From contig OX597823.1 of assembly GCA_951406725.2 (NCBI GenBank), positions 92,318,001 through 92,382,000 on the forward strand: 64,000 bases of DNA, given 5' to 3'. The number at the start of each line of letters is the position of its first letter. Within the stretch, counting starts at the first letter, position 1. Below are positions 8,342 through 61,749 of the stretch, in pieces. Source of the stretch: Octopus vulgaris. Lineage: Eukaryota. The notes under the pieces were generated by a model. That model was given only the letters and a program-made list of their open reading frames with translations. It ran no database searches and had not been told where the DNA came from. Position numbers and translations under genes: made by a program.

Positions 8342-8447
8342 TAAAAACCGTTTAGTATTTTGACTAACAAGTTAACAGACCCGCCAGCACTTTTCAGTTC
8401 TATCTCTAAAACAAAATATAATTAGCATAGTGTTTTTGTAGTCATGG

Positions 8448-13416: not shown

Positions 13417-13724
13417 AGAGCATGAATAATAATGATAATAATAATTCAGGGAAATCTCATACTTTGTCAGTGAAATTTATCGCGGGAATAGTAGCAGGTT
13501 GAACAAACCCTAATGCCAGCCATAAATGGCATTTAATTTATTAATCCCGGAATAATCAATGTCAAAGTGTGAACTAACAGTATTTAATCTTATAAGATGA
13601 TGTATAATTAATCGTTCCACCGTAGCACCGTGGAACCAAAGGCATTAATTACTCTCCATATTTAAAGAAGGCCACAATGGTTCGACGAAGAAACCGAATT
13701 CTTGTAACAGATCATTTAATTATA

Positions 13725-14345
13725 TTGGTTTCGTATTTTGACACAAGGCCAGTAATTTCGAAAGGAGGAGTAATTTGATTAAATCGACCCCACTGCTCAA
13801 CTGGCATTTATTTTATGGACCCTGAAAGGAGGAAAGGTAATGTCGGCCTCGGCGGAGTTTGAACTCGGAACGGAAATTCGGACGAAATGCCGTTAAGTTT
13901 TTTGTTCAACACGCTAGCGATTCTGTCAACTCGCTGTATTGATTTCAAATTCTGGCACAAGGCCAGCAATTTCGGGAGACAGTAAGTTGATTACATTGAC
14001 CCCAGTGTTCCACTGGTACTTATTTTATCGACTGCGAAAGGATGAAAAGGAAAGTCAACATTGACAGAAGTTGAACCCAGAACGCGAAGATCGACAAAAT
14101 ACCTATTTCTTTACTACCCACAAGGGGCTAAACACAGAGAGGAAAAACAAGGACAGACAAACGGATTAAGTCGATTATATCGACCCCAGTGAATAACTGG
14201 TCCTTAATTTATCGACCCCGAAAGGATGAAAGGCAAAGTCGTCCTCGGCGGAATTTGAACTCAGAACTTAGCGGCAAACTAAAGATTGACAAAATACTGC
14301 TAACCATTTCGCCCGGCGTGCTAACGATTCTGCCAGCTCGCTACT
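13725..14345 (-). mobile_element. SINE family A: monomer plus dimer
   Basis: Three family A cores; dimer junction at ~14097-14110. Confidence 0.85.
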
Positions 14346-15150
14346 TTAACTGTCATCGATACATTCCTGACATTTTTGTTCTGTTCCAAAGGGAGTTATA
14401 TGAGGTATCATCGATCAAATTTGAACCAGAGACGAAGGAAAAGTAACCAAAGGCCAACAAAGACATTATACATGAGCGTATATATGTTTATATGAACAAT
14501 AACACACACACTCTAATTATTAGTGGGAAATTCCTTTTAATTTTAGATACAAAAAGATTATTGTAACTTATATTGTACTTTAAGAATCAACGCTAACCAG
14601 TGGTGATTTCTCCGTAGATTAAACAAGTGAACCGTCGTAGTCGATTTTCAAATGTTATTGGAAACTCATTAGAGGAAACTACATCAATTCGATCTTTCCC
14701 AGGGATCCGGCATCCAATCTGTTTATATACTCAACAAATACAGGAGTTATAGAGAAGTGGTGCCACTAATTTGCATAAGGTTATCGTCAACACTTTACTT
14801 GAAATAAGAGGGTCTTGTCAACTGGGATCTCAGTCCTTACATTATCAGTTTATGTCATAATCAATGTAATCTCAGTATAAATTTAACTGTTTCCTCGGAG
14901 ACTGAAAAAAAGATCAATTACCTTAATTCATCGGAACAATCAGAACAGCGGTAATCCAAGCATTAACGTAACCATCGGATCAATGAATTAAACAAAATTA
15001 CCAGCTCTTGTTTATAGAAATCAGCAAACAGGTTTTGGGCTGATTCATTCTGATGTTTGCCAAACTGCTAATAATTCGTGGGATGCTTCCGGACCAACGA
15101 AAATCCCGGCAATAATGCTTCTATTTATTTTTAATATATTCTGGCAGAGT

Positions 15151-15955
15151 AAGGCAGCGAGCTGGCAGCGTCGTTAGCACGCCGGGCAAAATGCTTAGTG
15201 GTATTTCGTTTGCCGTTACGTTCTGAGTTCAAATTCCGCCGAGGTCGACTTTGCCTTTCATATTTTTGGGGTCGATTAAATAAGTACCAGTTGCGCACTG
15301 TGGTTGATGTAATCGACTTAATCCGTTTGCCTTTCCTTGTTTGTTCTCTCTGTGTTTAGCCGCTTGTGGGTAGTAAAGAAATAGGTATTTCGTCTGCTGT
15401 TATGTTCTGAGTTCAAATTCTGCCGAGGTCGAATTCGCCTTTCATCATATCGGGGTCGATTAAATAAGTACTATTTTCGCACTGAGTCGATGTAATCGAC
15501 TTAATCCCTTTGTCTGTCTTTGTTTGTCCCCTCTATGTTTAGCCCCTTGTGGGTAGTAAAGAAATAACTAATTTCTGGCAGATTTATCGTGCCGGGAAAA
15601 ATGCTTAGCGACATTTCGTCTGTCTTAACGTTAAGAGTTCAAGTTTCGCTCACGTTGACTTTGCCTTTCATCCTTTCTGGGTGGATAAAATAAGTACCAG
15701 TTACGCACAGGGGTCAATGTAGTCGACTTAACCCTTCCACCAATATTACTAGCGTTGTAAAAAATTTCAAATCAATTTATTCTGGCAGATTAAGACGGCG
15801 CACTGGAAGAATCCTTGGAATGCCGTGGAAAATATTAAGCGGCGCTCCGTCAGTCTTTATTTTCTGAATTCGAATTCGGCCGAGATCGATTTTGCCTTTT
15901 ATCCCTGCGGGGAGATAGAAATAGATTCCAGTTGAACAATGGGGTTGATGTAATT
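15151..15955 (+). mobile_element. SINE family A array (dimer plus two further units)
   Basis: Head AAGGCAGCGAGCTGGCAGCGTCGTTAGCACGCCGGG, B-box GAGTTCAAATTCC, junction GAAATAGGTATTTC at 15378-15391; central domain resembles the Meta/MESC SINE domain. Confidence 0.88.
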
Positions 15956-16034: not shown

Positions 16035-16225
16035 CATTCTATATTTAAGAGATGAGGAATTATGTACATTATTTACATTTGACGGATATTTGCCTTCGTC
16101 TTGTTTGCTGTTAACACATGGTTTCGGCTGATATACCCTCCAGCCTTCATCAGGTGACTTGGTAGTGTTTCGAACTTGGGTTCTCATCCCTAAGGCTTTT
16201 CTTTCGATGTTGTTATTATTATCGA
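16035..16225 (-). mobile_element. Penelope pLTR-like repeat with HHR (left copy of an inverted pair)
   Basis: Reverse-complement homologue at 20742-20890. Confidence 0.75.
16115..16156 (-). ncRNA. Minimal type I hammerhead motif, PLE type, with a mutated stem III/cleavage site
   Basis: CAC-CTGATGAA-GGCTG gagggtatat CAGCC-GAAA-CCAT-GTG. Confidence 0.7.
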
Positions 16226-16320: not shown

Positions 16321-18082
16321 AAGAAGAAGAAAAAGAAGCTGCGCTACGAACAATGTTTACGTGCAGAGAATCCTAAACTGATAGATCCTTCTCTTAATGT
16401 AAGAGTCGAAGCCCGTCATGCTTCAATGTCAACAAAACAAACTACAAACCGCGATGGTCGGCGAGCGGATTACAAAAGACCACGTACCCGAAAATTGAAC
16501 CAAAGTCTGATTGAAAAATCATCTACTGGATCAAATCTTCCCGACACACAGGAGCTGGACGTACCCCACAACTGGAATATTCCAACAGATGGCCATCCAT
16601 GCTCGTCACCAAACACTCAAAAGAAAAAGAAGGAAAGATGGACTAGGGAAGATAATAAAGAAGTTCTTGTGGCCTTCTACCATGCCATATATTTCCCCAC
16701 AGATAAATCGAACACAATAAAACCTACATAAACTGGAGACAGAAGACCCTACATAGAAGCAAGACCCTACATAGACAGTAACAAACTTGCCAACGACAGA
16801 AGAAATATTATAAAAAAAATTACTGACTGAAGTAGAGATTGATAAAATTAGACAAGCAGTACAGATAGAATGAACGAAGCTGCAGCTAAAGAAGATAATA
16901 CAGAGGAAATAATTATAGACCAGCCCAGAGTTGATAAAAACGAAATAAGGATTGAAAGAGTTAGTATAAGTGATATGCAAAGTGAAATACTCCCTGAACC
17001 AAACATAAACACTAAGACAGATGAACATCAAATAGATGAAGAAAGTCACACAAATATTGACCCGACAGAACTGCATGAGCTAAAAAATCAAATTATGATT
17101 GAATGCCTGAAAATTAAAGAAACCAGTATGGATGAACGTGATACACTCCCTAAAATCCGCAACTCTAACCAAAACGTGAAAATAATTGGTAAAATCCGGC
17201 TTGCACTTAAGGATATAATTTCAGCTAATGATGTTGATATCACAGATCTCAACCACCTATACTATGCATCCGCGAAAATCTCAGCGATCCTATGTGGTAA
17301 AAAGATTAGAAAACAGCAACATTTCCACAAAAAGCCTCCTTGGCAAGAGCGTTTGCAACAACAAATTAAACTATTTAGATCTAACATTGAATATTTGAAA
17401 AACCTTAAGGTTCATATGACTACCAAACCTACAAAAACCCCAAAACTAATGAAAAAATATAATATGAAAACTATACTTGATATTGATGCCACCATAGAAA
17501 CCATCAAGCAAAAGGTATCTGCTAAAGCTGCCCGCATAGCGAGGTATTAAAAGCGTATTAGATTCTTCAGGGACAACAACATGTTCAAAAATAACCCCAA
17601 AATTTTTTACAGGAACATAGGAAAAACACCAGTTACCTTAAAGTCTGTACCATCAAAAGAAGAAGTGCAGGGATTTTGGAATAAAATTTGGGCAGAAGAA
17701 TAAACACACAGCGAAAAGGCCCTCTGGATTGATAGGATATCTAAAGAACTGGACTCCTTAGAAGAGCAAAAGTGGGAGGGTGTCAAGGTAGAAGATATAA
17801 GATCTGCTCTCACGAGGTCAAGCAAATGGAAGTCTCCAGGAAAGGATATAATCCCTAACTTCTTGTTGAATGCCTTCCCAGAGGGCCATGAACTGCTAAC
17901 AGAACTTTACAATGATGTTTTGCAACACCCTAGTAGGATGCCTCCTTGGCTAGTTAATGGCTTAACATTCCTGCTTCCAAAAAGTGAAGAAGCAAATGAA
18001 CCAAAAACTATAGACCCATAACCTGGTTAACAACTATGTATAAAACACTAACATCTGCCCTAACGGAATATACCTATAGTTT

Positions 18083-19201
18083 TTGACAGACAGCAGCATA
18101 TTCCCTAATGAACAGAAAGGATGTAAACCTGGATCCTACGGTTGTAAAGATCAACTACTCATTAATAAGATGATCTTAGAAGATTGTCACAAACGACACA
18201 AAAACTTATCAATAGCCTGGATAGACTATAAAAAGGCTTTTGATAGCCTACCACATAGCTGGATTAAGAAATGCCTAGAAATGTATAAGATAGCACCTAC
18301 ACTGCGAAACTTTTTGTCTGTAAGTATGAGATCATGGAGAACCACACTAACTTTGAACAGTGACAATGAATCTCTAAATGCTGGTGATGTAAAAACTTCA
18401 TGTGGCATTTTCCAGGGTGACTCACTATCACCACTCCTCTTCTGTTTAGCCTTAATACCTCTCTCAAAACTGCTCAATGACGCACAGTACGGATATAAAA
18501 TGTTTGATAAAAATATAAATCATCTCATTTACATGGATGATTTAAAGCTCTTTGCAAAAATTGACCAACAACTCAAGGGCATACTAGCGATTGTCAAACA
18601 ATTCAGTGATGACATCAGAATGCAATTTGGCCTCGATAGGTGTACAAAAGCTACCTTTATCAAAAGAAAAATGACAGAAACATCTAACGTTAACCTTGAC
18701 CAGCAGAATGTCATAAAAGAATTAGACCCAGCGGAGAACTACAAGTATCTAGGGGTAATTGAAGGAGACGGAATAAGGTATTCAGTGATGAAGGAAAGGG
18801 TCAGGAGAGAATGTTATCGAAGAGTAAGAGCAATACTCATGACAGAGCTGAATGCGAGAAACAGGATCGAAGCGATCAATGCATTAGCCATACCAGTCGT
18901 GACTTATAGTTTCAATATCGTTAACTGGTCAATTACTGAAATATGTAATCTTGACAGAAAAATAAGAAAACTGTTGACAATGCATAGAATGCACCACCCT
19001 AAGGCAGATACAGAACGACTTTATCTGCCAAGAAAAGAGGGAGGCCGTGGACTTTTACAACTGGCAATAACAATGAAGATTGCTACAATTCGCCTAGACA
19101 CCTACCTGAAAAACTCTGAGGACTGGATGTTAAAACTTGTCTCAAAACATGAAAACAAGAAAGCATCATACTCAGTAATAAACAGGCAAATGAATATCTA
19201 A
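18083..19201 (+). pseudogene. Reverse transcriptase segment of the R4/Dong element
   Basis: [58 protein letters not shown]. Confidence 0.95.
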
Positions 19202-19309
19202 GTGAATTCCGAATAGAACAAATTTCGGAATTAGAGATAGACATACAAGAAACAGGCACAGAAAAAGTTAAGCGCATGAAAACCCGTGCTAAATCTGCGG
19301 CCTTAGATA

Positions 19310-20044
19310 TTGATAAATGATAAATGGCAAGAAAAACCTCTCTATGGCAAATACTCAAAGAGAGCGAATAATGCAGATGTTGACAAAGCCCTGACCCATC
19401 AATGGCTAATGGCCTCTGGCTTAAAATCTGAAACAGAAGGGTTTATCATAGCAGCTCACGATCAATGCCTACCAACGAGAAACTACCAGGCCAACATATT
19501 AAAGATCGGCAGTAGACCAACGTGTCGTGTATGCCAGCAACAAAATCAAACCATTGATCATGTGGTCTCCAAGTGCAGTCTTCTAGCGCCTACAGAGTAT
19601 CTCAACAGGCATGATAGAGCTGCACAATATATTCACTGGGTAATCTGCAAAAACCTGGATTTGCCCCATGAAAAAAACTGGTGGGAACACAAACCACCCC
19701 CAGTGCTTGAAAATGACCACATCTCACTCCTCTGGAACTTCACCATTCAAACTGACAGAAAGATAGATGCAAATAAGCCAGACATCATATTGAAAGACTT
19801 CAAACAAAGAACATGCCTCCTCATTGATATGACTGTCCCAATCGATATAAACGTATCTGTCAAAACCTACCAAAAACTGAGCAAATATAAAGATCTTGAA
19901 ATAGAAATCAGTAAAATGTGTAAGCTGAAGACTAAAACAATACCTGTTGTCATAGGTGCCCTGGGAATGATAGCAAAAGGGGCTGATTTCTACCTAACTC
20001 AGATACCAGTAAACCCCAAAATGGCAGAAATACTTTCTATGTAA
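19310..20044 (+). pseudogene. CCHC zinc knuckle plus restriction-like endonuclease segment
   Basis: CRVC-x8-H-x4-C, RHD, KPDIILKD, IDMTVP, KLSKYKDL, IPVVIGALG; the terminal TAHIL motif seen at 36950 appears deleted. Confidence 0.93.
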
Positions 20045-20194
20045 TCTCAAGGTTTAAAACAAACATTATTTTTTAGACATCCACTAGTACAACACAAAAA
20101 ACAACAAAATATATGGCACACTAGGCATAACAACAACGTGAACTTCCAACCTGTTGTCTCTTGAGGTCTCTGAGTGAGACTTGGATCCAATTTA

Positions 20195-20585
20195 TCTTTA
20201 TATATAAAAGTGAAGTTGTGTGTCTGTCTCCTACGATTTATATTCCTAACTACTCCCACATTTTGCGGTGCAGTTTAACCAAAACCGGGTATCTTATAGT
20301 CGTGATTCATATCGAGCCCTTCTAGGTATTAGCGCACGTCTACGATGAGTCTACGATTAAAAAAAAAATACCATCATTTTTCACCATTTCAATGTATTTT
20401 TTGCTATTATATAAGGGAAGTAACTCTCTAGAAATGTATTATTAAATCTCAGAACGTAAAAAGCTACAGTAACACCCCCCTTTGTGGTTAGCCATATTGA
20501 GATGGCTATTATACGTTACATCTCTAAATATGCTTATATAGTTATTTCCCTTAGAAACCCGAGCAACGCCGGGCGATACTGCTAG
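20195..20585 (+). mobile_element. Non-autonomous Helitron (391 bp) inserted in the Dong 3' UTR
   Basis: 5' TC, 3' CTAG, subterminal hairpin CCCGAGCaacGCCGGG (20558-20573), inserted between A and T with no TSD; empty-site equivalent at ~37131-37174. Confidence 0.88.
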
Positions 20586-20610
20586 TGCAAATATAAAGCA
20601 AAAGTCAAAC

Positions 20611-20704
<94 letters not shown>

Positions 20705-20741
20705 AACAACAACAACAACAACAACAAGAATAACAACAACA

Positions 20742-20890
20742 ATTCGAAAAATACCTTAGGAATGAGAACCCAGGTTCGAAATTTCCCCCAAAAAACTTGA
20801 AGGTTGGAGGGTATATCAGCCGAAACTTTGTGTTAACAAGATACATTTGTTAAGACAAATACCCGTAAAATGTAAATAATGTAAATAATG
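20742..20890 (+). mobile_element. Penelope pLTR-like repeat (right copy of the inverted pair) with decayed HHR
   Basis: CCTTAGGAATGAGAACCCAGGTTCGAAA...TGAAGGTTGGAGGGTATATCAGCCGAAACTTTGTG. Confidence 0.72.
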
Positions 20891-31180: not shown

Positions 31181-31809
31181 CGTCTGCGATATTTTCCGAA
31201 CAAAACTGAATATTGCAAAATAATGAAGAAAAAAGAAGACATAAATAAAGAATAAATGAATAAAAAAACATAAAAGCAAAGACCGAAATTACTTATCACG
31301 CAAAGAAAATATTCCAAGTGTTTTATTTAATTAACGGAATAACATGTGAAAATGAAAATAGCGAAATAAATTGATAACAACACCGCATACAATATACAAT
31401 ATGAACGACTGATATTTTGCGCATGAATATGTCTACACGACCGTGGTAAGAAAATTTAACTATATTACCAAAAGTATATAACAATAAACACACATACCCA
31501 TATTCGTGTGTGTGTATATATTTATGATGACTGTAGACTGAACATGAAATATGATGTATTATTGCGTGTATCAACTCTCTTGGCACATAATTTCGACATG
31601 AATATTTCTCAACGATTACAAACTAAACGTCAGTTTGAATTCTGTATTCAATATAAATTACTTGATAGAATTGCCAAATTATACAGGGTGTCACTAGGCA
31701 AGAACTTGGTAGAAAGGCGAATTGAAGATAGTTTCAAATCCTTGCCAATTTGGAAAGAACCTATAACTCAAAGTAAACGCTGATGAGAATAACAGATAAA
31801 TGAATATAT

Positions 31810-32605
31810 TGTCTACTCTACGCACAAGGCCCGAAATATTTGGGGAGGCAGGGAAGTCGATTAGATCGACCCCAGTACGCAACTGGTACTTAATATATCG
31901 ACCTCGAAAGAATGAAACTCAAAGACGACCTCGGCGGAATTTGAACTCAGAACATACAGACGAAATACCTATTTCTTTATTACCCACAAGGTGCTAAACA
32001 TAGAGGGGATAAACAAGGACAGACATAGGTATTAAGTCGATTAGATCGACCCCAATGTGTAACTGGTACTTAATTTATCGACCTCGAAAGAATGAAACGC
32101 AAAGACGACCTCGGCGGAATTTGAACTCAGAACATAAAGACAGACGAAATGACGCTAAGCATTTCGCCCGGTGTGCTAACGTTTCTCCCAACTCGTCGCC
32201 TTAAAAGATAAATTAATATACTTTTCTACTCTGGGCGGAAGGCCCTAAATATTTGGAGAGGGAGTGATTCGATTAGATCAACCTCAGTACGCGTAACTGG
32301 TACTTATTTAATTGACCCCGAAAGATGAAAAGTAAAGTCAACCTCGGCGGAATTTGAACTCAGATCGTAGCGGCAGACGAAATACCTATTTCTTTACTAC
32401 CCACAGAGAGGACAAACAAGGAAAGACAAATGGATTAAGTCTATTATATCGACCTCAGTGCGTAGCTGGTAGTTATTTAAGTAACCCCGAAAGGATGAAA
32501 AGCAAAGTAAACCTCGGTAGAAGTTGAACTCAGAACGTAGCGGTAGACGAAATACCGCTAAGCATTTCGCCAGGCATGCCAAAGTTTCTACCAGCTCGCC
32601 GCCTT
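31810..32605 (-). mobile_element. Two tandem SINE family A dimers
   Basis: Heads at ~32201 and ~32605; junctions at 31962-31975 and 32379-32392. Confidence 0.87.
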
Positions 32606-33069
32606 AAAAGATAAATAAATATAGTCGCAGTTATGTCTGTGTAGTTACGAAGCTCCCTTTGCAATGATATAGCTTCGGGTCCAATCTTATTGCACAGTAC
32701 TTTGAATGAAGTGACTTTCAATATATCTGCGTGTAGATTATTATATTGTGAGTAATGTGGTCAACGGAAAATTTGTAGAAGAGCGTCACACATACCTCCA
32801 TGCGAGTACACACACTCACACATGAGTGCATATAGCTACATCGGTCAGACTATCGGATGTTACACATCTCTGGTCATATGGCTCTTCTTCGCATTGTTTT
32901 AGCTTTCAATTGATGCCAACCCGCTGGCTGAGTGAGCAAGCTATAAGTTTTACTAAAGGAAACGCCAGGCCATCGTTGTGTTATGCATCTGCAGCGGAGT
33001 GTTATGGAGCAATGACAAGTAGTGAAGAACATAAAACACCGCTGTCCTGAGAATGGAACAGCGATCGCA

Positions 33070-36951: not shown

Positions 36952-37175
36952 ACTGCTCATATCCTACATACTATCTATGTAATCTCAAGTTTTAAAACAA
37001 ACACATAATTTTCTTATGGTCTCTTAAACATTCTCTAGAACAACATTATGTACAAAACCAAATATATGGCTCCCTAGGCATAACACCAACATGAACTTCC
37101 AACTTGTTGTCTCTTCACGTCTCTGGGTGAGACTTGGAGCCAACTTGTACAAATGTAAAGCAAAAGTCAAACATA
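36950..37175 (+). mobile_element. 5'-truncated 3' end of the same Dong family as 16338-20612
   Basis: TAHIL codons, then a 3' UTR aligning with 20035-20194 plus 20586-20612. Confidence 0.85.
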
Positions 37176-39865: not shown

Positions 39866-40785
39866 ACTACCATTTAGATATACTGGAGAGACTGAGGAAG
39901 TCATTGCTGGAATTTGTCGACAGTGATTTAAAAAAAATATGTACTTTTATTCTATTATTTGTTTCAGTCATCTGGCTGCGGCCATGCTGGACCACCACCT
40001 TGGTATGCAAGAGATAATTTATTTTTATAGCATTCTTTGGCATTAGCAAATGTGTCTTTTTACTGACACTCACGACGTCGCTTATTTCGAGGTATAAAAA
40101 TTTAAATTACAATATTTTTGTTATTGAAATCCCAGTAATGGACCACCGGTGTGTTACTTCCATATCATCCTTCCATAAACTGTGTTTATGGGTAGAAAAC
40201 TATTAAAAAGAGATATGTAAGAGTGACAAAGAAACGAAAGCTCTCGCCGTAAGATGTGCCAGAAACAACAGTCAAACATCCCTTTAATCTCACACCTTAT
40301 ATTTTAAATTTGATTGTTTTTCTTTTTTTACGGAAAAGACTTCTCTCATTGTTTTTTAAGTACGTAGTACTTCCAAAATTGGGCAAAATAGATCCTGAGA
40401 GTGAGGATGCAGTGAGATGTGTGGGAAAAAATCATAAACTGTCAAACATTGGATCACATGAAAAAATACCCACTTACCGACATTCTGAAGGCCGTGGTCA
40501 GAAGAGAAGTTGAAAGAAATCCTTGTCAAGACAAAGAAAATTCAACTTAAGTGGGTGTCCTGATTCGAAACTCTGTTCAACTATTGAATATCAGAATATT
40601 ATTTTTTTGAGAGTAATCATAATATATGATGTTTAGAATTCCTCTATGCTAAATACTTCATCTCTCTATCTCTATCTCTCTCACATCGTAAGCATTCCTC
40701 TCTTTCTCTCTCTCTCTCTTCACCTTTCACTTGAACTAATAACGTGTCAGCTTCATGCAGCGTCGAGCAGAAATACCACCACTCA

Positions 40786-41182
40786 AGGCGGTGAGCAGGC
40801 AGCGTCGTTAGCACGCCGAGTGAGATGCTTTGCTGTATTTCGTCTGCCGTTACGTTCTGAGTTCAAATTCCTCCCATGTCGATTTTGCTTTTCATCCTTT
40901 CGGGGTCGATTAAATAAGTACCAGTTAGGCACTGCTGTCGATATAATCAACTTAATCCGTTTGTTTGTCCTTGTTTGTCCTCTGTGTTTAGCCCCTTGTG
41001 GGTAGTAAAGAAATAGGTATTTTGTCTGCCGCTACGTTCTGAGTTCAAATTGCACCGAGGTCGACTTTGCCTTTCATCTTTTCGGGGTCGATAAATTAAG
41101 TACCAATTGCCTACTAGGGTTGATGTGATCGACTAGTCCTCTTCCCACAAATTTCAGGCATTGTGCCTTTAGTAGAAAGGAT
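40786..41182 (+). mobile_element. SINE family A dimer (tail A then tail B)
   Basis: Junction GAAATAGGTATTT at ~41010. Confidence 0.87.
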
Positions 41183-41210
41183 GATAATAATAATAATAAT
41201 TATTATTATT

Positions 41211-42318
41211 GTTTTACTTCAGAGAAAGTTCGGTCTAGTTTGTTCTGGTAGGTTCTGTGAGAGCGGACAGCAGCCTGCTGTCAGCAGTCTCACACGGTCT
41301 CTTCCTGTACATTATATACTTTGATACTTGGTTGTTAATTATCATTGGAGACATTCAACATTCAAGTACCAGTCTCAATATCCAGCTGTTCGTAGCAGAG
41401 CCGATTATGGAGGCTTGCTTTTCACTCATGTCAATTAAATTTTTTTTGACATATTTCTCTAACTTGGTTGTTAGTGCTCGGTGTGCCCCTACAAAAACTA
41501 GAATGACAGACATTCTCCTCATAGTTCAGATTCTCTGCAATTTCGTCTTTTATTAGTCTGTACTTTTTAATATTTTCTTGTTTTTGTCAATTATGCCTGC
41601 ATCTTAAAGTGTTGCAATATCTGTGATCTTGGTTTACTTTTTTCCCCCTTTATCTACCACAACAATATCTGGTCTCCGAGGATTGATTATGGAGTGACAA
41701 TGGATTGTAAAATCCCACAGTTTCTTATGCTCCTTATTGTCGGCGACTTTTTCTGTTTCATTTTCGTACTATTTCCGTGCTCTGTTCGGGCCGTACTTTT
41801 CATATAGCCTCCAGTGGTGAACTTAGTCACGTTATCGTGCCTCTTTTTAAAGTGCCGTTGGACCGGTTTGCTACAACCACTCACAATATGAGAGATTGTT
41901 TTGTTTCTGCTGCCACACATCCTGCAAAGGGGCGATTCGCTACTCTTATCTATTTGGAACTTGGCGCACTTAGTTCTGAGATCTTGTTCCTGGGAGCTGG
42001 GTATCAATACCTCAATGCACCCTTCCAGTTGACTTTTCTTAGCCATCTCCAAGGTGTGATCTTGTCAATTTCTCTGAGGTATTGCCCGTAGAGTGACTTC
42101 CTTTTCCAGTTGTTGACTTCTTGTTTCTTAAATGTTTGTGAATTCAGCACGTTTTTCGGTAAATATTGTATTGTTAATTCTAACAAAGATTCACTCTGCT
42201 GTGTCATGCACCATCCCAGATTGTTCTTCGCATTGACAACACATATCTTGCATACTATGAGACCTATTCTCCCCATGTTTCTAGGCACATACAATATGTC
42301 AATATCGCTTTAGATTAG
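41211..42318 (-). mobile_element. Decayed R4/Dong-type 3' fragment
   Basis: YVPRNMGRIGL, WKRKSLYGQYLRE, QEQDLRT, SPLCRMCGSRNKTISHIVSGC, KRHDNV; ATT runs at both ends. Confidence 0.85.
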
Positions 42319-43397
42319 CATTATTATTATTATCGTCGTCGTCGTTGTCGTTGTCGTTGTTGTTGCTGTTGTTGTTGTTATTGTTGTCATCATCATATAC
42401 AATAGTGCTGTAATGAAGCAACACCTTATTCACAATATCCTCTTTCATTCCATCGTATATGTTGGTATATACTTTGCGATATTGAAGGGCGCCTAGTGAG
42501 ATTTTTGAAATTAGTGCATACGTGTATTAACATATATTTACGTGTTTGTGTGTATGGGTACACACATGCACACACACACAAACGCATTGGCTCTCAAAGT
42601 TCTTACCTGACACGCTATATAGCACCTCGAAGTGAATACCAGCATATCATGGAACGAGTGAATGCCGTGAATAAAGCGCAGCTCTACCGCTGCCTTATTA
42701 AGCAAACATGTGAGATACACACTCGTAACAACTGAATGACGAATGACAAATGGAAAGCAAACACTTCTTATTATATTTAAATTGCTTACGTATGAGACGA
42801 GTCTTCAATTATCCATGTATACAATTGTCATTATATTATATAATGTAAAATATAATTACTAACATTTACGTCGAAATAACATTAATTTTATGGAATGAAT
42901 ATTGCTGTTGACATTTAAGAAGCATGAATCAATCTCTCCAGGGTTTATAGCTGCTAATAATACTTCTTTTGTATGCTCGCTTCTGACCAGCTGAGTCTTA
43001 ACCTTGTAGAACTGATGCCGATGGCAGTTATAAGGAATTTGAAATTTTGTTCTATTAAGTTTTTACTATTGTGAAGAAGTTTTTAACCACCATGGAGACA
43101 TTCGTGAGCCTGGTATATGCCAGTACAGTTCATTGTGAAAGTTTATTGCTAAAAAGAAAACTAAAAGTCCATTCCTTTCTAAATATGTACATATATATAT
43201 TACAAAATGATTAAATGGTATCTCTGATACGGTGTAAAACCTGAGTAGCAACCCAGGTTTTCGTTACTGTAATGTATACGATAATCATTACATAATGAAG
43301 GTTATTAGACGTATTGATTTTTATAGAATCGCTTTTTCAAGGTGATGACATTGTTTTGCTAAAGGTGTTGCTGTGATTGTTTGAAAACTAACGCTTT

Positions 43398-44000
43398 GAT
43401 TTCAAATTTTTACACAAGCCCTATAGTTTCGAGGAGAGGGAATAAGTCGATTACATCGACCCCAGTGTTCAACTGGTACTTATTTCATCGAATCCAAATA
43501 ATAAAATGCGATACCGACCTCAGTGGGATTTGAACTCAAAATATAAGTTGGATGAAATGCTGAAACGATTCTGCCAATTTGTAGTCTTTTGTTTTATTCA
43601 ATATGAAATGGCTGGAAGGCGGCGAGCTGGCAGAATCGTTAGCACGCCGGGCGAAATGTGTAGCCGTATTTCATCTGTATTTACTTTCTGTGTTCAAATT
43701 CCGCCGAAGTCGACTTTGCCTTTCATCCTTTCGGGGTCGGTTAAATAAGTACCAGTTACTGGGGTCGATATAATCGACTTAATCCGTTTGTCTGTCTTTG
43801 TTTGTCCTCTCTGTGTTTAGCCCCTTGTGGGTAGTAAAGAAATATGTATTTCATCTCTCTTTATTTCAAATTCCGCCGAGTCAACGTTGCGTTTCATCCT
43901 TCCAGGTCGATAACATAAGTACCAGTCGCGTAATGTGGTTGATGTAGTCGACTGGCCCACTCTCCAAAAATTTCGGGCCTTGTGCCTAGAGTAGAAGAGA
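43398..44000. mobile_element. SINE family A: minus monomer (43398-43580) head-to-head with a plus dimer (43618-44000)
   Basis: Family A cores on opposite strands. Confidence 0.8.
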
Positions 44001-44558
44001 ATATGAAATGATTGGATGGTTGGAAATTATTTGTAGCCTTCAGTTGTTCCTGCTGGGAAATCCAAACAGAATATGTAATGAATCCTATTCTTAATAGGAC
44101 AATATGGACAAAGTACCTGACGACTCATCACCAACGAAGCTCCCAGGAATAATGGGCTGAGAAACTGGATGGACGGAGAGTTTCACAATATCTAAAACCT
44201 TCTTCGGTCGAAGTTGATGTGCATGCGTATAAATATCTTTGGTCCCGGGTATGATTCCGAGTAAGTTTGTCAGTTATCCACGCATGCGTGTCTCACTTCT
44301 CCAGGGACAAGGTTGTCAACGCATGCAGGTACATCTTGGCACCAGGCATTGCTGTTAGAATGTGAAGACACAGAGCGTATAATTAATAGGCATTTCTATC
44401 ATTTTCACCGATCTACCGTCCCGGTTTGGTAATTCTTTATAAAGCTCAAAATTATGAAACACGAAGGTGGCTTCGGCAGGATTTGAACCAACAGCGCACA
44501 ATCAGAAACTGCAGCCTTATTCAAATTGTAAGGAATTCAACACTGTGCAATTTATAGA

Positions 44559-46052: not shown

Positions 46053-48423
46053 GTGATGAAATCTCAAAGTTTATTTTGCTGGGTATAATGGAAAGTGATA
46101 GCTGTCCACAGCCAGCAGACTCAGGTGACACTTGTTTTACTGATCATACTTCAAGAACTCTACGAAGAATTCTTGCAGTTCCGAGCAACGCTGATTTTTG
46201 CAAGTATTCTACCTTCACACTTGCACCGATCTTTTTCAGCCATGATGGTAGTTGAGTGCTGATATTTCAATTACATCAATTCCTACTGTTATCATGTCTA
46301 CTCTCCTCATTGCCCTCAACTTTTGTATTTCCCACTGCAATACATCATAGTTGCTTATTTGGTCTTCTTTCCCATTGATCCTATTGTCAGTAAATCATGC
46401 TATGTCGATCATCATGCGTGTTCTTTCGTTTTTATTCACCTCAACAATATCCAGTTTCCGATCTCTTCTCAAATGATCGCATTGGATCATTGCATCCCAC
46501 AGGTTTTGCAGTTCTTATTCTCGGTGACTCCTTTCTGGGATTTGATCATACCTCGTCTTTGTTCTTTGTAGGCTAAGATTTCCACAGAGTTCCCAATGGA
46601 TCATTCTTACCACATTGTCATGGCGTCTCTTTGTTATGTCGCACGTTCGGATGCCTTCCACTCAACTCGACCCCACTCTACTCTTCTCTCCCTCAGCTGT
46701 GCTCTCTTCTCTACTCTCACTACTACTCAACTGTTCTGTCGACTGCTACTCTTGACGTCTAGACTTCTCCCTCTATATCTACGTATTGGACTAGTCTACT
46801 TCATCGTCTGGGGGCGTCAACACAACACTTTTATATTCGCGGTGTGTCAATTACGGGCATTCGCTGACGATATGCCATACCGTTTCACCCCTCTCACTAC
46901 ACATTCTGCATTTGTCACTGTCAGTAGTGTTATCGATTCTGCACTTCATATAATTGGTCCTTAACGCTTGTTCTTGAGCTGCGCATGAGCGCTTCTATTT
47001 TTATCTTTCTCATCCATAGCAATCGGTCCTTTGCATCCCTTTTGGCGTTCACATTTCAGGTAATGTGACCGCACAGTTTTCCTTCTATACTTTTTCTTTT
47101 TTGTATTCATTTCTTGTTCAAATTTTTCTTTCATTACACAATTTTCAGTTCTAATGACTACGACCTTCTTCCTAGATCTCGAAAATGGCTCTACGGCCAT
47201 CTAAGATGTTTTCCTCAGCTTCGATACACTTCTGATAACTGATCAAGTCCTGGACAAGTACAGTCTAGCGGTGTCATTCTTAGGGTGGACGGCTCTGTGT
47301 ACTCTCAACATTTTTCTGGTCTTGGTTTCTATTTTCGTCACTCCTCTCGTTTGCTATTTTATAATCCCCGCTCCATACCGAAATGATGCTATCGGCGCCG
47401 TATTAACTGCTTGAATTTTATTCCATCGAGTCAATTTTGAGCGCAACACCAACTTCAGTCTTCGAAAACACTCCATCCTCACTGGTTCTTTCATTTCCTT
47501 CTGCGTTCTCTCGTTGAACTCTAGTACCACCACGCTATTTGTAACCTTCAGTCTCAATATGGAGGTACATGCGCTTTTGAGATTTTTCCTTCACTTGCTA
47601 CTCCAGGTTCATTTTCCTATGTACCAATGTCAGGTGTATTATGCAGAGAACTAAAAGCAACGGTGATAATCTATCACCCTGGAAAATCCCTCTTCCGATG
47701 CCCCGGGTGCTCAAGCCATTTCCGAGAGATGTCAGTTCAATTTTACACCTCACCATACTTCTGTTTAGGAAACATGTTACATTCCTCCCATTTCCAAACA
47801 GATCTAAGCCCTCGGTGGTCCACAAATGTGGAATCATATCATAAGCTTTACGATAGTCAATCCATGCCAGATTTGTTCTTCGTTAACAATCTTGCATAAC
47901 CCTTTTGTCTGTCAATAATTGATCTTTGCTATCTCGGCATCTCCCGCTACAGTCTTTTTGTTTCGTCGTTCCCAAGAAATTTATGAAGTTCTGCAATTCC
48001 TCCTATCAGTAACTTCCACATTAATGGGAAGGAAGAAATTGGTCTGTAATTGTCAGCAGCATTTCCCTTTGATGCATCCACAAAACTGTTCGTCCTTTTG
48101 TCAACCAGCCCGTAGTATTCTCTCCATTGATCAATGTATCAAATTGCTCTACGATCAGTTTATGGCAACTACTGAACATTTTTTATCGCAAATCCCTGTA
48201 CAACGTCAAGTCCTGTGGTTTTCCAATTGCTTATCTTTTTACTTATATTTCTGATACTGCCTTCTGTGAAATGGAGATCCTCTTGCTGGGGATAAGAAGC
48301 TGCTTGTTTCAGACTGCAGAGCCATTCAGCTGCACCTATCATCAGCATCAGGAATTAATCTTTCACGGTTCTTGATAAAACCGTTTTTGGTGGGTTCTAA
48401 ACAGTTTGATTTGTTGGTATTGC

Positions 48424-48424
<1 letters not shown>
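46052..48424 (-). mobile_element. Decayed R4/Dong-type element (RT plus RLE)
   Basis: [61 protein letters not shown]; (ATT)n on both sides. Confidence 0.87.
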
Positions 48425-48522
<98 letters not shown>

Positions 48523-48613
48523 TGTAGTAGTAGTAGTAGAAGTATTGATCAAGCATCGTAGAATACAGTATATGGAGCAGCTTTTTTCCGAACACTTATG
48601 TTTTGAGTTATAG

Positions 48614-48678
<65 letters not shown>

Positions 48679-49389
48679 TATAGATATATAATCCCAATAA
48701 ACGAAGAAAAATCACAAGAAGAAAAAATAACAACACAAGACGAGGACGTTGTACAAAGTATTAAAAGACATTCAGGAAAGGAAAGAAAGTTGGTTTTATA
48801 TTTCGAGCAAATTTCTTTTTCAGGAACAGGAGACAGGGGAATGTCCAAGAGAAAAAGAAGAGGGGGCATAAAAATCGCCAACAATCTACATGTACTTAGA
48901 TTTTGAAAGGAGAATGGATGAAGAAAGAATTCTTCCTAAGACAGGAGAGTATAAGAGAAAGAGGCATCTCTGTGTATGTGTATATATGTGCGCGCGTAAA
49001 AATTGGTCTGTAATTGTCAGCAGCATTTCCCTTTGATGCATCCACAAAACTGTTCGTCCTTTTGTCAACCAGCCCGTAGTATTCTCTCCATTGATCAATG
49101 TATCAAATTGCGTGTGTGTATCAGTTTATGGCAACTACTGAACATTTTTTATCGCAAATCCCTGTACAACGTCAAGTCCTGTGGTTTTCCAATTGCTTAT
49201 CTTTTTACTTATATTTCTGATACTGCCTTCTGTGAAATGGAGATCCTCTTGCTGGGGATAAGAAGCTGCTTGTTTCAGACTGCAGAGCCATTCAGCTGCA
49301 CCTATCATCAGCATCAGGAATTAATCTTTCACGGTTCTTGATAAAACCGTTTTTGGTGGGTTCTAAACAGTTTGATTTGTTGGTATTGC

Positions 49390-49431
<42 letters not shown>

Positions 49432-49456
49432 TTATTATTATTATTATTATTATTAT

Positions 49457-49508
<52 letters not shown>

Positions 49509-49595
49509 TGTAGTAGTAGTAGAAGTATTGATCAAGCATCGTAGAATACAGTATATGGAGCAGCTTTTTTCCGAACACTTATGTTTTGAGTTATA

Positions 49596-49678
<83 letters not shown>

Positions 49679-50005
49679 ATAATCCCAATAAACGAAGAAA
49701 AATCACAAGAAGAAAAAATAACAACACAAGACGAGGACGTTGAAAAATATTAAAAGACATAATCAGATAAGGAAAGAAAGTTAATGGTTTAACAATATAC
49801 AATTTCGAGCAAATATAAGGATCTTATACGATTCAGGAACAGGAGACAGGGGAATGTCCAAGAGAAAAAGAAGAGGGGGCATAAAAATCGCCAACAATCT
49901 ACATGTACTTAGATTTTGAAAGGAGAATGGATGAAGAAAGAATTCTTCCTAAGACAGGAGAGTATAAGAGAAAGAGGCATCTCTGTGTATGTGTATATAT
50001 GTGCG
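48036..50005. repeat. ~960-bp tandem duplication (possible assembly artefact)
   Basis: 48036-48997 is repeated at ~48999-50005; differences are clustered indels and microsatellite length. Confidence 0.85.
48690..48900 (-). mobile_element. Penelope pLTR-like repeat with decayed HHR (duplicated at 49680-49900)
   Basis: Minus strand CTGAAAAAGAAATTTGCTCGAAATATAAAACC at ~48792-48825; related to the 4600 and 54660 repeats. Confidence 0.5.
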
Positions 50006-51455
50006 CGCGTGAGCGCGTGTTTCTGTGTGTGTGTAATAGCATGTGAGTGTGTATGCGTGTGGCTGTAACTGAGTGCGTGTTTGTATATGCGGGCGTTGGT
50101 AACTGTGTGTGTGGGTGCTTTGTGTGTGTGTTATTAACTGTTTATATGTGTTTGTGTGAGTGAACTTCGTGTCTGTTAATGTTGCAGGAAGTATCCAGTT
50201 GCTATGGTAACAGAAGTGGTGATCTTTCATGTAGTTCCGTGTTTCTTTACATGTCCGTTGATAGGATGGTCAGTAAAAAGCTTTTTGACTAACAATGTGA
50301 AGGGTGGTGTGTATGTATGTGTATGTTGGGTGTGTGTGTGTGCGTGTATGTGCGTGAGTGTGTGTGTTTGTATATATGTGTGTATGGGGTTATAAATTGG
50401 ATTGTATATGTGGAGGTATATGTGCGTGCCTGTGTGTGTGTCCGTGTATGTGCCTGTGTGTATGTGCGTGTGTGTACACACATGTGCAATCGATTAAACG
50501 GGCGCTGTATGGGCAGTTTGGACGAGGGTGGATGGGCATCCTCAATATACATATACATACATACATACATACATATATGTGCGCATATATTGTGCGTGTT
50601 GTGTGTGTGCGTGCTGTGTTTGAGAGTGTGCATATGTGTGCGTGTATGTGCGTAAGTGTGTGTGAGTGTTTGTATATGTGTGTGTATGGTGTTATAAACG
50701 GGATTGTATATTTGGAGGTATATGTGCCTCCCATTTGTGTATGTGCGTGTGTGTATGCACATGTATATGTAATTATGTGCGTGTATGTACGAGTGTGCGT
50801 GTGTGTGTGTTATGTATGTGTATGTTGTGTGTGTGCGCGCATGTATGCGTGTGTGGTGTGTGCGTGGTGTGTTTGAGAGTGTGTATATATGTGTCCGCGT
50901 GTGTATGTGTACGTGTGTGTATGTGCATATGTGTATGTGTGTGTGGGGGGATTATATGCGCGTTCTTGTACGTATGTGTGTGTATGTGCGTGTACGTGCG
51001 TGTACGCGCACGTGTGTGTATGCGTGTGTGTATTAGTGCGTGCGTGTATGTACGTGTTTGTATGTGTGTGCATGTATATGTGTGTTGTGTGCGTGTGTGC
51101 GTGCGCGTATGTAAGTGTGTATGTATGTATGCGCGTGTGTGTATATATATATATATATATAAATAAAATAAAATAAAGTAAAATAAGATTGATAAAAATA
51201 ATAGAGAAACAAGGAAAAATAAGAATAAAAAATAGAAAATGCTTAAAAGATGATGAAAAATAAATAAAAATAATAGATACAAGATAAAAGATATAAATTA
51301 ATGGGATAAATTAACAATTAATACAATTATTGAATGAAATATAAGGATCAAATATACGATTACACCTGGAAAAATGCGATAAAGAAATGAAAAACAACAA
51401 ATAAAAGTGTAAAAAAGTGAGTGAATTAATATAAGATACGATAAACTGTTACTTT

Positions 51456-55661: not shown

Positions 55662-55697
<36 letters not shown>

Positions 55698-55700
55698 TGG

Positions 55701-55972
55701 TTGTATAATGTCAACTTAACGTGACAGTCCCGTAAAGGGAAATACCTCACCGCTATTTAGCCCTAGGAAGCATCGACGCTTCCTGTCGGCCTTGACACGT
55801 TTCCTGTGTTCTTACATATTTACGAAGGGGAGACAAACACCCCCAACAGCTAGGCCTGCATCTAGAGACATGTCTAGAGTAGCAAGGCCTGCTAGCTGAA
55901 GATATTTGTCTAGACTTCGTAAATATATATATATATTTTCAGTGAAGTTTATTCACTGATCACCAAAATCAG

Positions 55973-56025
<53 letters not shown>

Positions 56026-56171
56026 AGATACCTTTGCTCATATAATACAGTAAATGAATTGATTGCATCGCAATCCTTAACATTTATGTATTAACTTTGT
56101 TGGGTACTTCACTAGCAGTATATTGGATATATGTTATCCCATGGAGGGTTGCATTTACAACCCCTATCTCA

Positions 56172-56206
<35 letters not shown>

Positions 56207-56265
56207 CGAAGTCTCGACAAATAAATCCAGCTAGCAGGCCTTGCTACTCTAGACCGATGATACAA
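55701..56265. mobile_element. Sister family of the 59641 element: copy at 55701-55926 plus an inverted partial copy at 56200-56265
   Basis: GCTATTTAGCCCTAGGA...GACACGTTTCCTGTG...TATTTACGAAGGG aligns to 59695-59775; 56200-56253 is the reverse complement of 55873-55926. Confidence 0.65.
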
Positions 56266-56323
56266 CCACTCTATCGCTCCACCACCGCACATATCTGTAT
56301 GAAATATTTAGAAATTTAATATT

Positions 56324-58560: not shown

Positions 58561-59760
58561 GCGCTAGCGATGACTGTAAATAGCGGTTATGGTAATCGAA
58601 TGTTGTATATTTTATTGTGCTGTGTGGGGAAAGGATAAATGGTAGACAAGATGAATGTAACTACTCGATATTCCCGTAAGCCTTTATTAAATGTTTACAT
58701 ATAGTTTTTTGGTGGTTTATAAATTAATAATTATAGGGAGGTAGATTATGATAGCATGTTATTTTTGTGAAGTGCAAATGATAGGAGAGTGAACGCAGCA
58801 TTGCGGGAAGAGAGGTTGGCGTGATCTTTCATAGAAACCATATTTTATGTTGAATGCAAGCGTCGAGTGTCTCGCATTTCAGCTGTGTTTAGTTACGTCG
58901 TGGGATAAGGCATTCTTGTGTATTTATAGATGCATATAGGGAAAATTATATGAAAATATTAACATATAATTTACTAACACACACACACAAACACACTGGC
59001 ACACACTCACGCATGCACGCACACAGATGTACACACATACACAGATATACAGGGTGCTATGTGTAAACTGTCACCATTTCCATCATTAATTCCGCGCTTT
59101 CGCGTTGTTTGCTTTTGATTTTGTCGACTACACAGTATAGTAAGGTCAGATGGGCACCGGAAGCTCCCATACGAACATTTGAGAGTGTTTGAGTGAGAAT
59201 CTGAGGATAGTGCGGAGGATTCGGAAAGAGTTGGATGCGATTGCAAAGGTATGGCAGCTTGAAAAAACTCACTCTAATCGTTCTAATAAAAAAAGAAACT
59301 AGTTGGTGAGATCCAGGCCAACGATCCCTCCAAGTCAATCAGATCCAGTGCCAGGGACATGGGACTGTTTGAGTTTCTTGTTTCATGCAGGCAGTGCATA
59401 AAGCCATTCAGTATTCCTCGTACAAGATGAGAAGGTACCAATTATATCCCATGCCATCAAAGAGCATAATAAAGACCGTACTACGAAGCTTTTGAACAAA
59501 CTGAAGCATCTCTTCGAACCGAACATGCTTTGGTTATTCTCGGACGATAAAATTTTCTGCTAGGATCAGATGGTAAACACACAGAACAACGTCTGGCTTG
59601 CCGTCTCCACAAAACTTTTACCGGGAATGATAAAAATAAATGTAAAGTATAAAAGCCATCTCAATATGGCTAACCACAAGGGGGCGGTACTGTAGCTTTT
59701 TAGCCCCAGGAGATCATTGTCATCAGATGGCTTTAGACACACTTTCTGTGCCCTTAAAGT

Positions 59761-59891
59761 ATTTGCAAAGGGAGGCCATCCCTTTCTCGTAAGCCTGAGT
59801 GATACGCACCGGACCGGTTTCGAGATTATTGTCTCTTATCAACGGGCGGTAATCACCAGGTCACGATGAAAGACAAGGCCTGCTTGCAAAT
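59761..59891 (-). ncRNA. Type I hammerhead ribozyme candidate (U3-A8 core, GUC site) on a long stem I
   Basis: CGCCCG-TTGATAA-GAGA caataa TCTC-GAAA-CCGG-TC-CGGTGCG; predicted cleavage between 59812 and 59811. Confidence 0.75.
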
Positions 59892-60049
59892 ATATAAGAG
59901 TTTTTCTAGTGACGTCTGCCACTTATTTCGAAAAATTGACTGCAATCATTATTAAATTTCAGAAGGAGATGTCAACAATAACCGCTCGAGCGGTTAGCGG
60001 TTACTGTTTACATCTCCTTCTCCAGACGTCACTAGAAAAACTCCTATAT

Positions 60050-60180
60050 ATTTGCAAGCTGGCCTTGTCTTTCATCGTGACCTGGTGATTACCGCCCGTC
60101 GATAAGAGACAATAATCTCGAAACCGTTCCGGTGCGTATCACTCAGGCTTACGAGAAAGGGATGGCCTCCCTTTGCAAAT
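60050..60180 (+). ncRNA. Second hammerhead copy (U4C and a stem III mismatch)
   Basis: CGCCCG-TCGATAA-GAGA caataa TCTC-GAAA-CCGT-TC-CGGTGCG. Confidence 0.65.
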
Positions 60181-61749
60181 ACTTTAAGGGCACAGAAACT
60201 GTGTCTAAAGCCATCTGGAGACGATGATCTCCTGGAGCTAAAAAGCTACAGTAACACCCCACCTCCTTTGTGGTTAGCCATATTGAGATGGCTTTTATAC
60301 TTTACATTGTCGAGCGGTTACTGTTTACATCCCGTTCTGAGATTTGATAAAAATAAAGCATCAAGTTAACATCATGGTGTTTGGTGTGATCACTAGTGAT
60401 GGTAATATTATGCCTCCATTCATCTTCCCAGAGATTCAACACAGAGGCCTACATCAGGCCTGGAAAAGGCAGTGCTGCCATGGTTCAAGAAGGTGGTTGC
60501 TGGAAGAAACTATGTCTGGTAACAAGACTCTGCACTATGCTACACATGCATGAACAACCAGTGATGGCTCTCAGACAATTTCCGCGATCACATCACCCCT
60601 TACATTTGGTCACCTAACACCCCAGACTGCAATCCTCTTATCTATTATGTGTGGGACGCTGTTGCGTGAGGGACCAACAAATCTCTTTGTGGCTGTGGTT
60701 AAAGCCAATGGCGATTTTATTGAATATAGTTACTCTTTAGTATTTCAAGATTTTTTTCTGTAATTTTGGTAAATATATCTGTTAAAATGAGATGTCACCG
60801 TTATTTTCGCTTTTGTTTAATTTAGACGACAGTTTATTCACCGCACCCCGTATATAAACTAAGATATATTAATTTTCCTGTCCATAAATAATTTCGTTTT
60901 CATACCCGAAATCTCCCAGTATCTACCCGCCATCTTCCCTCTTTGATTCATTTTTCTTCAGTACTGATAATCGAAACTTCAAAGAAACCTTTACTTTTCA
61001 TTTGACCATTAAACTACCACAGTTACAGCTCTTTCCCTTCGTACCTTGTTGAAATTTTGCCACTTTTGGCCTATACACAACAAACACTCGCACAGACACA
61101 CACACGCGCGCGCATGCATACTATACGCATATGTATGTACATGTCTAAATATGAATATATATATATATGCGTTTATGTATGTATATATATATATGTAAAT
61201 AGATAGATAGATAGATAGATAAATAGATTAATAGATAGACAGAAAGAGTTGTGTTTATGTGAGCATGGCGTGTGTGTATATATACATATACAGATATGCA
61301 TATGTATTTATATATGTGGTTGATTTTTGTAATATGCCGACATGTTCATGTAGTTACATTTGCATGGAGTTGTGCGCATTTGCCATTCAATCCTTCATAG
61401 ATGTGATGTAAGGGAAGACATCGGCAACAGAAAGTGAATCCAGATATCAACTCGCTATTTATTACTCGCAGTTTTGGACAATGAATGTCACACTTTCCTT
61501 AATATAAATGTAGATAAATATTGTAATGTTACCTATTTTGTTTGTGGTAATAACAACCTATTCTGACTCCTATATGGATCCCCATCATTATTTCTATTTA
61601 TACTTACTCTGTGACGAATAACAAAGCAATAGATTTTCAAACATAAAATTATCTTAAACTTAGCGCAGGGGTTTCGAAATAAATCACCCCTTCTCAATAT
61701 CGTTTGAGTTCTATTTATTCAGTTTTTCATTGATTCCTGAAGAAATCTT

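Follow-up and report, generated by a model that had tools for sequence, protein, structure and literature searches.

Does a head-to-head pair of short non-coding units, one of which runs past its own start, record the reverse transcription of a circular RNA or of a linear template longer than one unit? The question is raised by an insertion in a 64,000-nucleotide stretch of Octopus vulgaris DNA (contig OX597823.1, positions 92,318,001 to 92,382,000; hereafter the 64-kb window, to which all coordinates refer). A preliminary description of this locus had read terminal redundancy and circular permutation as signs of a circular or multimeric RNA template, copied with a fold-back or a template switch in the manner proposed for retrozymes and inverted Penelope pLTRs.

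Anatomy of the insertion

The segment 59641-60344 (704 bp) is a real, retroelement-type insertion, and the observation that drew attention to it is confirmed. It consists of a head-to-head inverted pair of a non-coding unit of ~350 nt. The left arm (59641-59989, minus strand), read from the centre outward, is a single 349-nt unit that stops at an end point termed E1 and carries no tail. Alignment of the arms places the right arm at 59986-60306 (plus strand), likewise up to E1, with a 41-nt deletion, a 7-nt duplication and a 6-nt insertion; it is followed by a one-sided tail of 38 nt (60307-60344, plus strand), which repeats the head of the unit and leads from E1 to a second end point, E2. The 41-nt segment (59920-59960, minus strand) is present in the left head and missing from the right one, while the 7-nt duplication (at 59989-60002) and the 6-nt insertion are found in the right arm only. 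The full length of the unit is 352 nt, and 352 - 41 + 6 gives the period of 317 nt that separates the repeats of the right arm. Both heads begin 3 nt past E1, and the left arm (349 of 352 nt) amounts to one unit within 3 nt. Across 306 aligned columns the arms show 291 matches and 15 substitutions; 13 of the 15 lie outside the head, and the large differences between the arms cluster near the centre. The GC content of the unit is 43-46% (0.43 for the 349-nt left arm). A TATATA box, legible on both strands and possibly part of a promoter, lies at 59891-59896 and has a twin at 60045-60050.

The same alignment recovers the left unit of 347 nt from the centre to 59641, together with its extra 41-nt segment, as had been described. 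The direct repeat reported at 59996 and 60313 is present at a spacing of 317 nt; it is 26 nt long (59996-60021 versus 60313-60338) and identical at 24 of 26 positions. The right unit does pass its own start, extending 38 nt beyond the end point of the left arm, with 35 of those nucleotides repeating the start of the unit. These 38 extra nucleotides have no partner at the left end, which departs from the symmetric terminal inverted repeats of a MITE or foldback element. At the junction (59979-59996) the units meet in a perfect 18-bp palindrome, the longest non-microsatellite palindrome among the 28 listed, and the arms overlap there by the 4-nt palindrome TCGA (59986-59989). Since the 18-bp palindrome is simply the centre of a long inverted repeat, it adds no independent support to any mechanism.

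Target site and host transposon

The insertion is bordered on both sides by a target-site duplication (TSD) of 13 bp (59628-59640 and 60345-60357, both plus strand), of which 12 positions are A or T. The two copies match exactly (13/13), and this 13-mer occurs just twice in the 64-kb window. When the insert and one TSD copy are removed, the reading frame of the host continues across the empty site; at both of its ends the insert overlaps the target by 1-2 nt. The host is a decayed DNA transposon (59045-60855, plus strand) with terminal inverted repeats of ~28 bp that align at 23 of 28 positions. From its motifs we take it to be probably Tc1/mariner-like; comparison of its transposase pieces with Pfam and PDB returned no relevant match and lends that label no support.

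Head and tail of the unit

The redundancy at the outer end is longer than first reported, as 30 of the 35 positions of 60310-60344 are shared with the left head (59989-59955). Chance similarity is an insufficient source for the 26-nt direct repeat, the best pair of 26-mers reaching at most 19/26 in all 200 of 200 shuffled sequences against the 24/26 observed. The differences within the repeat are informative. Between the tail and the right head, 2 of 26 positions differ, and at both of these sites the left head carries the letter of the right head; relative to the left head, the tail differs at 5 of 35 positions. Furthermore, the tail continues into the 41-nt segment that the head of its own arm lacks, the first bases of this segment reappearing at the end of the tail. 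Divergence between head and tail (5/35) exceeds that between the arms (13/280) with a Fisher p of 0.037, which is a modest excess and a post hoc comparison.

Since the two heads agree with each other against the tail at two sites, a single monomeric circle is unlikely as the direct template. The pattern points to head and tail having been separate, already diverged repeats of a linear source, and a linear partial-tandem or multimeric template is favoured on these comparisons. The terminal redundancy itself is largely better explained as the known 'tail', or 34-bp repeat, of Penelope-like elements (PLEs) and is not by itself evidence of circular RNA. Circular permutation had been deduced, is not visible in the sequence itself and finds no support: both loci of this family in the window end at the same two fixed points (n = 2), and the two sites at which the tail departs from both heads speak further against it. 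The preliminary description had named fixed ends shared by all copies as part of what would tell against its proposal, and the same two 3' ends are used at these two loci (n = 2).

Other copies and relatives in the window

The second of these loci is a short copy at 20437-20521 (BLAST E 3e-22, 91% identity), in which an inverted tail end (20437-20456) is joined to the last 65 nt of the unit up to E1 (20457-20521). It terminates at E1 on one side and 7 nt beyond E2 on the other, in the same inverted layout as the main insert. It agrees with the tail at 12 of 12 positions and with the left head at 17 of 20, and covers one of the two sites at which head and tail consistently differ. Its flanks hold a candidate 12-bp duplication (10/12 matches), for which the window offers no empty site for comparison. 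This copy constitutes weaker evidence on account of the imperfect candidate duplication and of its position inside a non-autonomous Helitron-like element (~20195-20588, with a TC start, a hairpin and a CTAG end).

A distant relative occupies 55697-56300 and is ~60% similar over 158 nt of the 3' half of the unit (alignment score 78, where 300 shuffles gave no more than 55.5; the top of 1006 tiles after the second copy). It too is arranged head-to-head, with both arms reaching the same end motif; the right arm alone continues, into an AC-rich extension that does not recur near its heads. Its hammerhead region is apparently deleted, with possible remnants of stem I and of the core boxes. A third head-to-head pair (16059-16220, minus strand, and 20729-20889, plus strand; 78% identical) bears a minimal PLE-type hammerhead, with an intact core on the left and a damaged one on the right, and brackets a LINE at ~16340-20190; no clear TSD was seen around it.

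Within the 64-kb window, the family of the main insert has no pair of hammerheads on the same strand, each strand holding one motif. The head-to-tail tandem with at least two same-strand hammerheads that characterises retrozymes is thus not found at this locus, where the right arm amounts to a ~1.1-mer. A search of prokaryotic genome contigs for one 25-mer of the family returned 0 matches.

Hammerhead motifs and RNA folding

Each arm contains a type I hammerhead. The left motif (59789-59860, minus strand; predicted cut after 59812) is supported by an Rfam match to Hammerhead_HH9 (32.5 bits, with E values of 3.4e-6 over the region and 2.7e-4 over the window), by a descriptor scan and by folding. 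It has a U3-A8 core (UUGAUAA), a 4-bp stem II with a 6-nt loop, a long bulged stem I, and a stem III of 1 bp closed by a palindromic CCGG loop. The right motif (60081-60152, plus strand; predicted cut after 60129) scores 24.6 bits (E 0.0012), and the HH9 match is full-length in both arms. Neither score reaches the gathering score of this family (RF02275, 52 bits), and at the gathering score Rfam has no match anywhere in the 64-kb window. The scan of the whole window by E-value gave mostly microsatellite and miRNA noise among the best 150 of 230 matches, and the other Rfam matches in the insert (WsnRNA46 and others) were taken as by-products of the hairpin. The descriptor scan returned five hits in the window, namely the two arm copies with a 4-bp stem II and three with a 2-bp stem II that were treated as chance; it is not exhaustive, having missed the minimal motif at 16.1 kb.

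In the right hammerhead, core position 4 is a C and loop III is no longer palindromic; on these features it is probably inactive. The self-duplex of loop III is calculated at -8.3 kcal/mol in the left copy versus -0.3 kcal/mol in the right; by this model the palindromic hexamer of the left stem III can self-pair, as dimeric cleavage requires. The predicted cuts fall in mid-unit, 171 and 177 nt upstream of E1. Since the DNA ends lie away from the ribozyme cut sites, the template would have been uncleaved or re-ligated.

Folded as single arms, the unit is strongly self-paired and the hammerhead is free to form. The left arm folds with z from -5.1 to -6.5 and five single-arm folds with z from -4.6 to -5.4, while 22 of 24 control windows have z above -2; one control window (43401), which holds an inverted repeat, is stronger than the arms (z -7.2). 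Stem II pair probabilities are 0.83-0.99 in single-arm folds. A transcript of the whole insert, on the other hand, is predicted to fold as one long hairpin of ~300 bp in which neither hammerhead forms (pair probabilities 0.00), and a locus whose read-through hairpin unfolds both hammerheads would be unable to release a monomer. With hammerheads on opposite strands and a hairpin that unfolds both, the locus 59641-60344 is probably a dead, old repeat copy. Circularising the left arm in silico leaves its predicted structure unchanged and brings no gain, and neither arm folds better as a circle.

Coding content and the search for an autonomous partner

The 704-bp insert contains no RT/GIY-YIG ORF and is therefore not an autonomous EN+ PLE. 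The longest open frame noted in it (60106-60366, plus strand; 87 codons, no ATG) begins at stem II of the hammerhead and is open in the left arm too. A remnant ORF, starting at stem II as in Poseidon, was considered and rejected: the frame lacks an ATG, is frameshifted in the relative at 55697-56300 and, over the 80 codons searched, found no homologs among longer proteins. It has no Pfam match.

No PLE ORF was found in the rest of the window, as none of 148 open frames (of 187 candidates outside the 16.1-20.1 kb LINE) had a Pfam match, and simple GIY-YIG and PLE-RT patterns matched nowhere across it. The element at ~16340-20190 (plus strand) is a broken non-LTR retrotransposon with RVT_1 and zf-RVT domains, situated within a (TAA)n(GAA)n microsatellite, and fragments of it recur at 12097-12197 and 36968-37146. 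By its layout it is presumably R4/Dong-like. Among the 120 matches listed for the RT, the one that carries an organism name comes from a coral (61% identity). The RT gene at 16.3-20.2 kb, which adjoins the second copy, was considered as the PLE partner and rejected on its RVT_1 and zf-RVT domains and R4/Dong-like character, which are not those of a PLE.

Other repeats are plentiful in the window. Decayed RT-like sequences, detected by tblastn with homologs of the LINE RT, lie near 10, 36, 38, 41-42 and 46-49 kb. A head-to-tail duplication of ~1 kb (48036-48997 and 49000-50010) is 93% identical. Moreover, a very abundant SINE-like family with an internally repeated module of ~180 bp is found at 7906-8343, 13722-14349, 15150-15954, 31790-32623, 40785-41213 and 43396-44007.

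Comparison with Penelope-like elements and retrozymes

Rotifer Penelope copies carry an inverted pLTR overlapping a direct one. Their junctions are palindromic, a 31-bp tail may be present, the TATA box reads in both directions, and the TSDs measure 8-10 bp (PMC3846280). PLEs in general possess a tail of 30-40 bp, often at one end only (PMC8557442), and there are reports of Penelope copies bounded at both ends by a 34-37-bp repeat in direct orientation (PMC2377424). In vitro work traced the PLE tail to the interval separating two internal RT start sites and showed cutting and extension of both strands at AT-rich DNA; the RNA used predominantly as substrate is uncleaved, and the hammerhead need not cut (PMC11167929). 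With the inverted-pLTR insertions of EN+ PLEs (Pen2a_Av and Pen2_Av of Adineta vaga, Drosophila Penelope with its 34-bp repeat, and Poseidon of Anolis carolinensis) the insert shares a head-to-head inverted copy at the 5' end that overlaps at a palindromic junction, a tail in the 30-40-nt range at one end only (38 nt), a TSD in AT-rich DNA and a two-way TATA-like box. Also shared are a type I hammerhead in the terminal repeat, upstream of the tail, and the repetition of the tail at both ends of the unit. It differs in the absence of an RT/GIY-YIG ORF, in its TSD (13 bp versus 8-10 bp in the rotifer examples) and in its hammerhead, which is full-size with a long stem I and not minimal.

Metazoan retrozymes are built of tandem units of 150-450 bp whose type I hammerheads are canonical; they form circles, and their use of PLE enzymes has been proposed (PMC7229834). 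Proposals that they are PLE-mobilised and pLTR-derived (PMC7229834; bioRxiv 10.64898/2026.07.22.740005) are accompanied by pair-wise similarity of retrozymes and pLTRs in Xenopus (bioRxiv 10.64898/2026.07.22.740005). The insert resembles the non-LTR retrozymes of Acropora, Mytilus (350-390 bp), axolotl (HHR_Amex1, 330 bp) and Xenopus (REP4) in its non-coding unit of ~350 nt, within the 150-450-bp range, its GC below 50%, its high self-pairing, a type I hammerhead of canonical proportions, a 1-bp stem III, a palindromic tetraloop and a TSD longer than 4 bp. However, its copies are inverted and not tandem, there is no same-strand hammerhead pair, and the core is U3-A8. This pair is a covariant of C3-G8 reported in Schistosoma PLE hammerheads (PMC4209133). 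The hammerheads of the Schistosoma PLE Cercyon show the same core covariation as the insert, and pairs of motifs on opposite strands, 100-700 bp apart, were noted in the Schistosoma genome (PMC4209133); there, U3-A8 occurs among minimal hammerheads, whereas here it belongs to an HH9-like full fold. The same report suggested a circular template for PLEs (PMC4209133). A repeat survey of Octopus vulgaris lists many Penelope-like families and, in the passages searched, makes no mention of ribozymes (PMC13282606).

Origin of the insertion

The best reading of the unit is a pLTR-derived or retrozyme-like mini-element that bears a hammerhead and is mobilised in trans by a PLE. In its complete form, to which we assign a probability of roughly 0.7, PLE enzymes used a linear partial-tandem or multimeric RNA as template for a non-autonomous unit of ~350 nt, the RT starting at E1 and E2 and the copies being joined at TCGA. 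We infer the enzyme, the template form and the order of events as follows. Transcription of a source locus, arranged as tail'-body-tail or as a tandem array, would yield RNA that exceeds one unit and stays uncleaved. An endonuclease-bearing PLE would supply the RT/GIY-YIG protein, which would nick both strands of AT-rich DNA 13 bp apart, and reverse transcription would begin at two fixed internal sites, E1 and E2, 38-45 nt apart and one per insertion end. The copies would then join at TCGA, just past the upstream E1, via annealing or fold-back, and repair would leave the copies head-to-head, tailed on one side and bordered by a TSD.

This scenario is favoured by the TSD, 13 bp long and exact, and by a host frame that stays open once the insert is removed. 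The published layout of PLE insertions and the RT start sites mapped in vitro match the anatomy of the locus, and the ends of the second copy, the layout of 55697-56300 and the head/tail differences count in its favour as well. Against it stand the lack of an autonomous partner in the window, the restriction to two loci with a second TSD of only 10/12, the modest head/tail excess (p 0.037, post hoc), and hammerhead proportions that are of the canonical retrozyme type, unlike the minimal form described for metazoan pLTRs (PMC4209133). The proposed kinship with Penelope pLTRs and retrozymes is supported, as is a junction formed by fold-back or template switching. As for a circular or multimeric template, one part finds support, namely a template longer than one unit or circular, since each arm reads across the cleavage site of the hammerhead and contains sequence lying upstream of the TATA-like box. 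Its single monomeric form is the part that fares poorly.

That form nevertheless deserves weighing. A monomeric circular retrozyme RNA of ~352 nt, on which the RT made a single circuit from E1 to give the left arm and a little over one circuit from E2 to give the right, would neatly explain a left arm of 349 of 352 nt and two heads that both begin 3 nt after E1, which is the best argument for a circle and a point against a linear template. Unit size, a GC of 43-46% and a self-pairing z of about -5 match circle-forming metazoan retrozymes, as do the 1-bp stem III and palindromic tetraloop (PMC7229834); a circular template for copies exceeding one unit has been proposed (PMC4209133; PMC7229834), and fixed start sites on a circle would likewise yield fixed ends. 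On a circle, however, head and tail would be the same nucleotides, yet the tail departs from both heads at the same two sites and enters a 41-nt segment missing from the head of its own arm, with the second copy agreeing with the tail. The folds gain nothing from circularity, and the window holds no same-strand hammerhead pair of the family; we therefore regard a monomeric circle as unlikely.

Two further explanations may be set beside these. An already inverted master might propagate by self-priming, whereby a transcript from the two-way TATA box of one arm crosses the junction into and through the other arm, and its cDNA folds back on its inverted end and copies itself, passing on the head-to-head form; such a process, with bidirectional pLTR promoters, has been proposed for the inverted junctions of PLEs (PMC3846280). 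The symmetric TATATA boxes, the concentration of large arm differences near the centre and a start ~25-30 nt downstream of 59891, which would lie close to the border of the 41-nt segment (59920), are in keeping with it. With 13 of 15 substitutions outside the head, however, the bodies could count as near-identical copies only if all 13 were acquired after insertion, and the model alone leaves the one-sided tail unexplained. Self-priming, which is partly compatible with PLE-mediated copying of a linear RNA, is on balance quite improbable. Poorer still are the prospects of an element moving at the DNA level (a MITE or foldback transposon, a DIRS-like element, or a fragment captured by a Helitron), which we consider very improbable. 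A long inverted repeat with a TSD, and a second copy inside a Helitron-like element, would suit such an origin, but the asymmetric ends, with 38 nt of tail on one side, and the hammerhead in each arm do not; the main copy lacks Helitron ends, and its TSD is exact at 13 bp. DIRS elements and Helitrons are not known to make a TSD.

Significance

Given that the tandem arrangement of retrozymes is missing at this locus and that it contains no ORF, it is filed as a non-autonomous PLE-type insertion with a retrozyme-like unit. In the openly available papers searched, no description was found of a unit with a full-size hammerhead and the whole PLE signature, each ingredient having been published. On an unlikely but instructive reading, this family would be a genuine retrozyme that forms circles and carries a full-size U3-A8 hammerhead. 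Its copies would then preserve the trace of a circle reverse transcribed by a PLE from two fixed starts, the RT having halted after exactly one round, as in the left arm (349 of 352 nt). If so, mapping the ends of copies would directly test, at the level of the genome, the proposed but as yet unshown route from retrozyme circle through PLE reverse transcription to insertion, and the PLE tail would act as a cis signal of a non-autonomous RNA. Comparison of head and tail within each copy offers a cheap discriminator between circular and linear templates.

So far, the borrowing of Penelope-like machinery by retrozymes has been argued from co-occurrence and pLTR similarity (PMC7229834; bioRxiv 10.64898/2026.07.22.740005). 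The combination of a retrozyme-sized unit, a full-size hammerhead and a complete PLE insertion signature at one locus lends modest, insertion-level support to the proposed partnership between retrozymes and PLEs.
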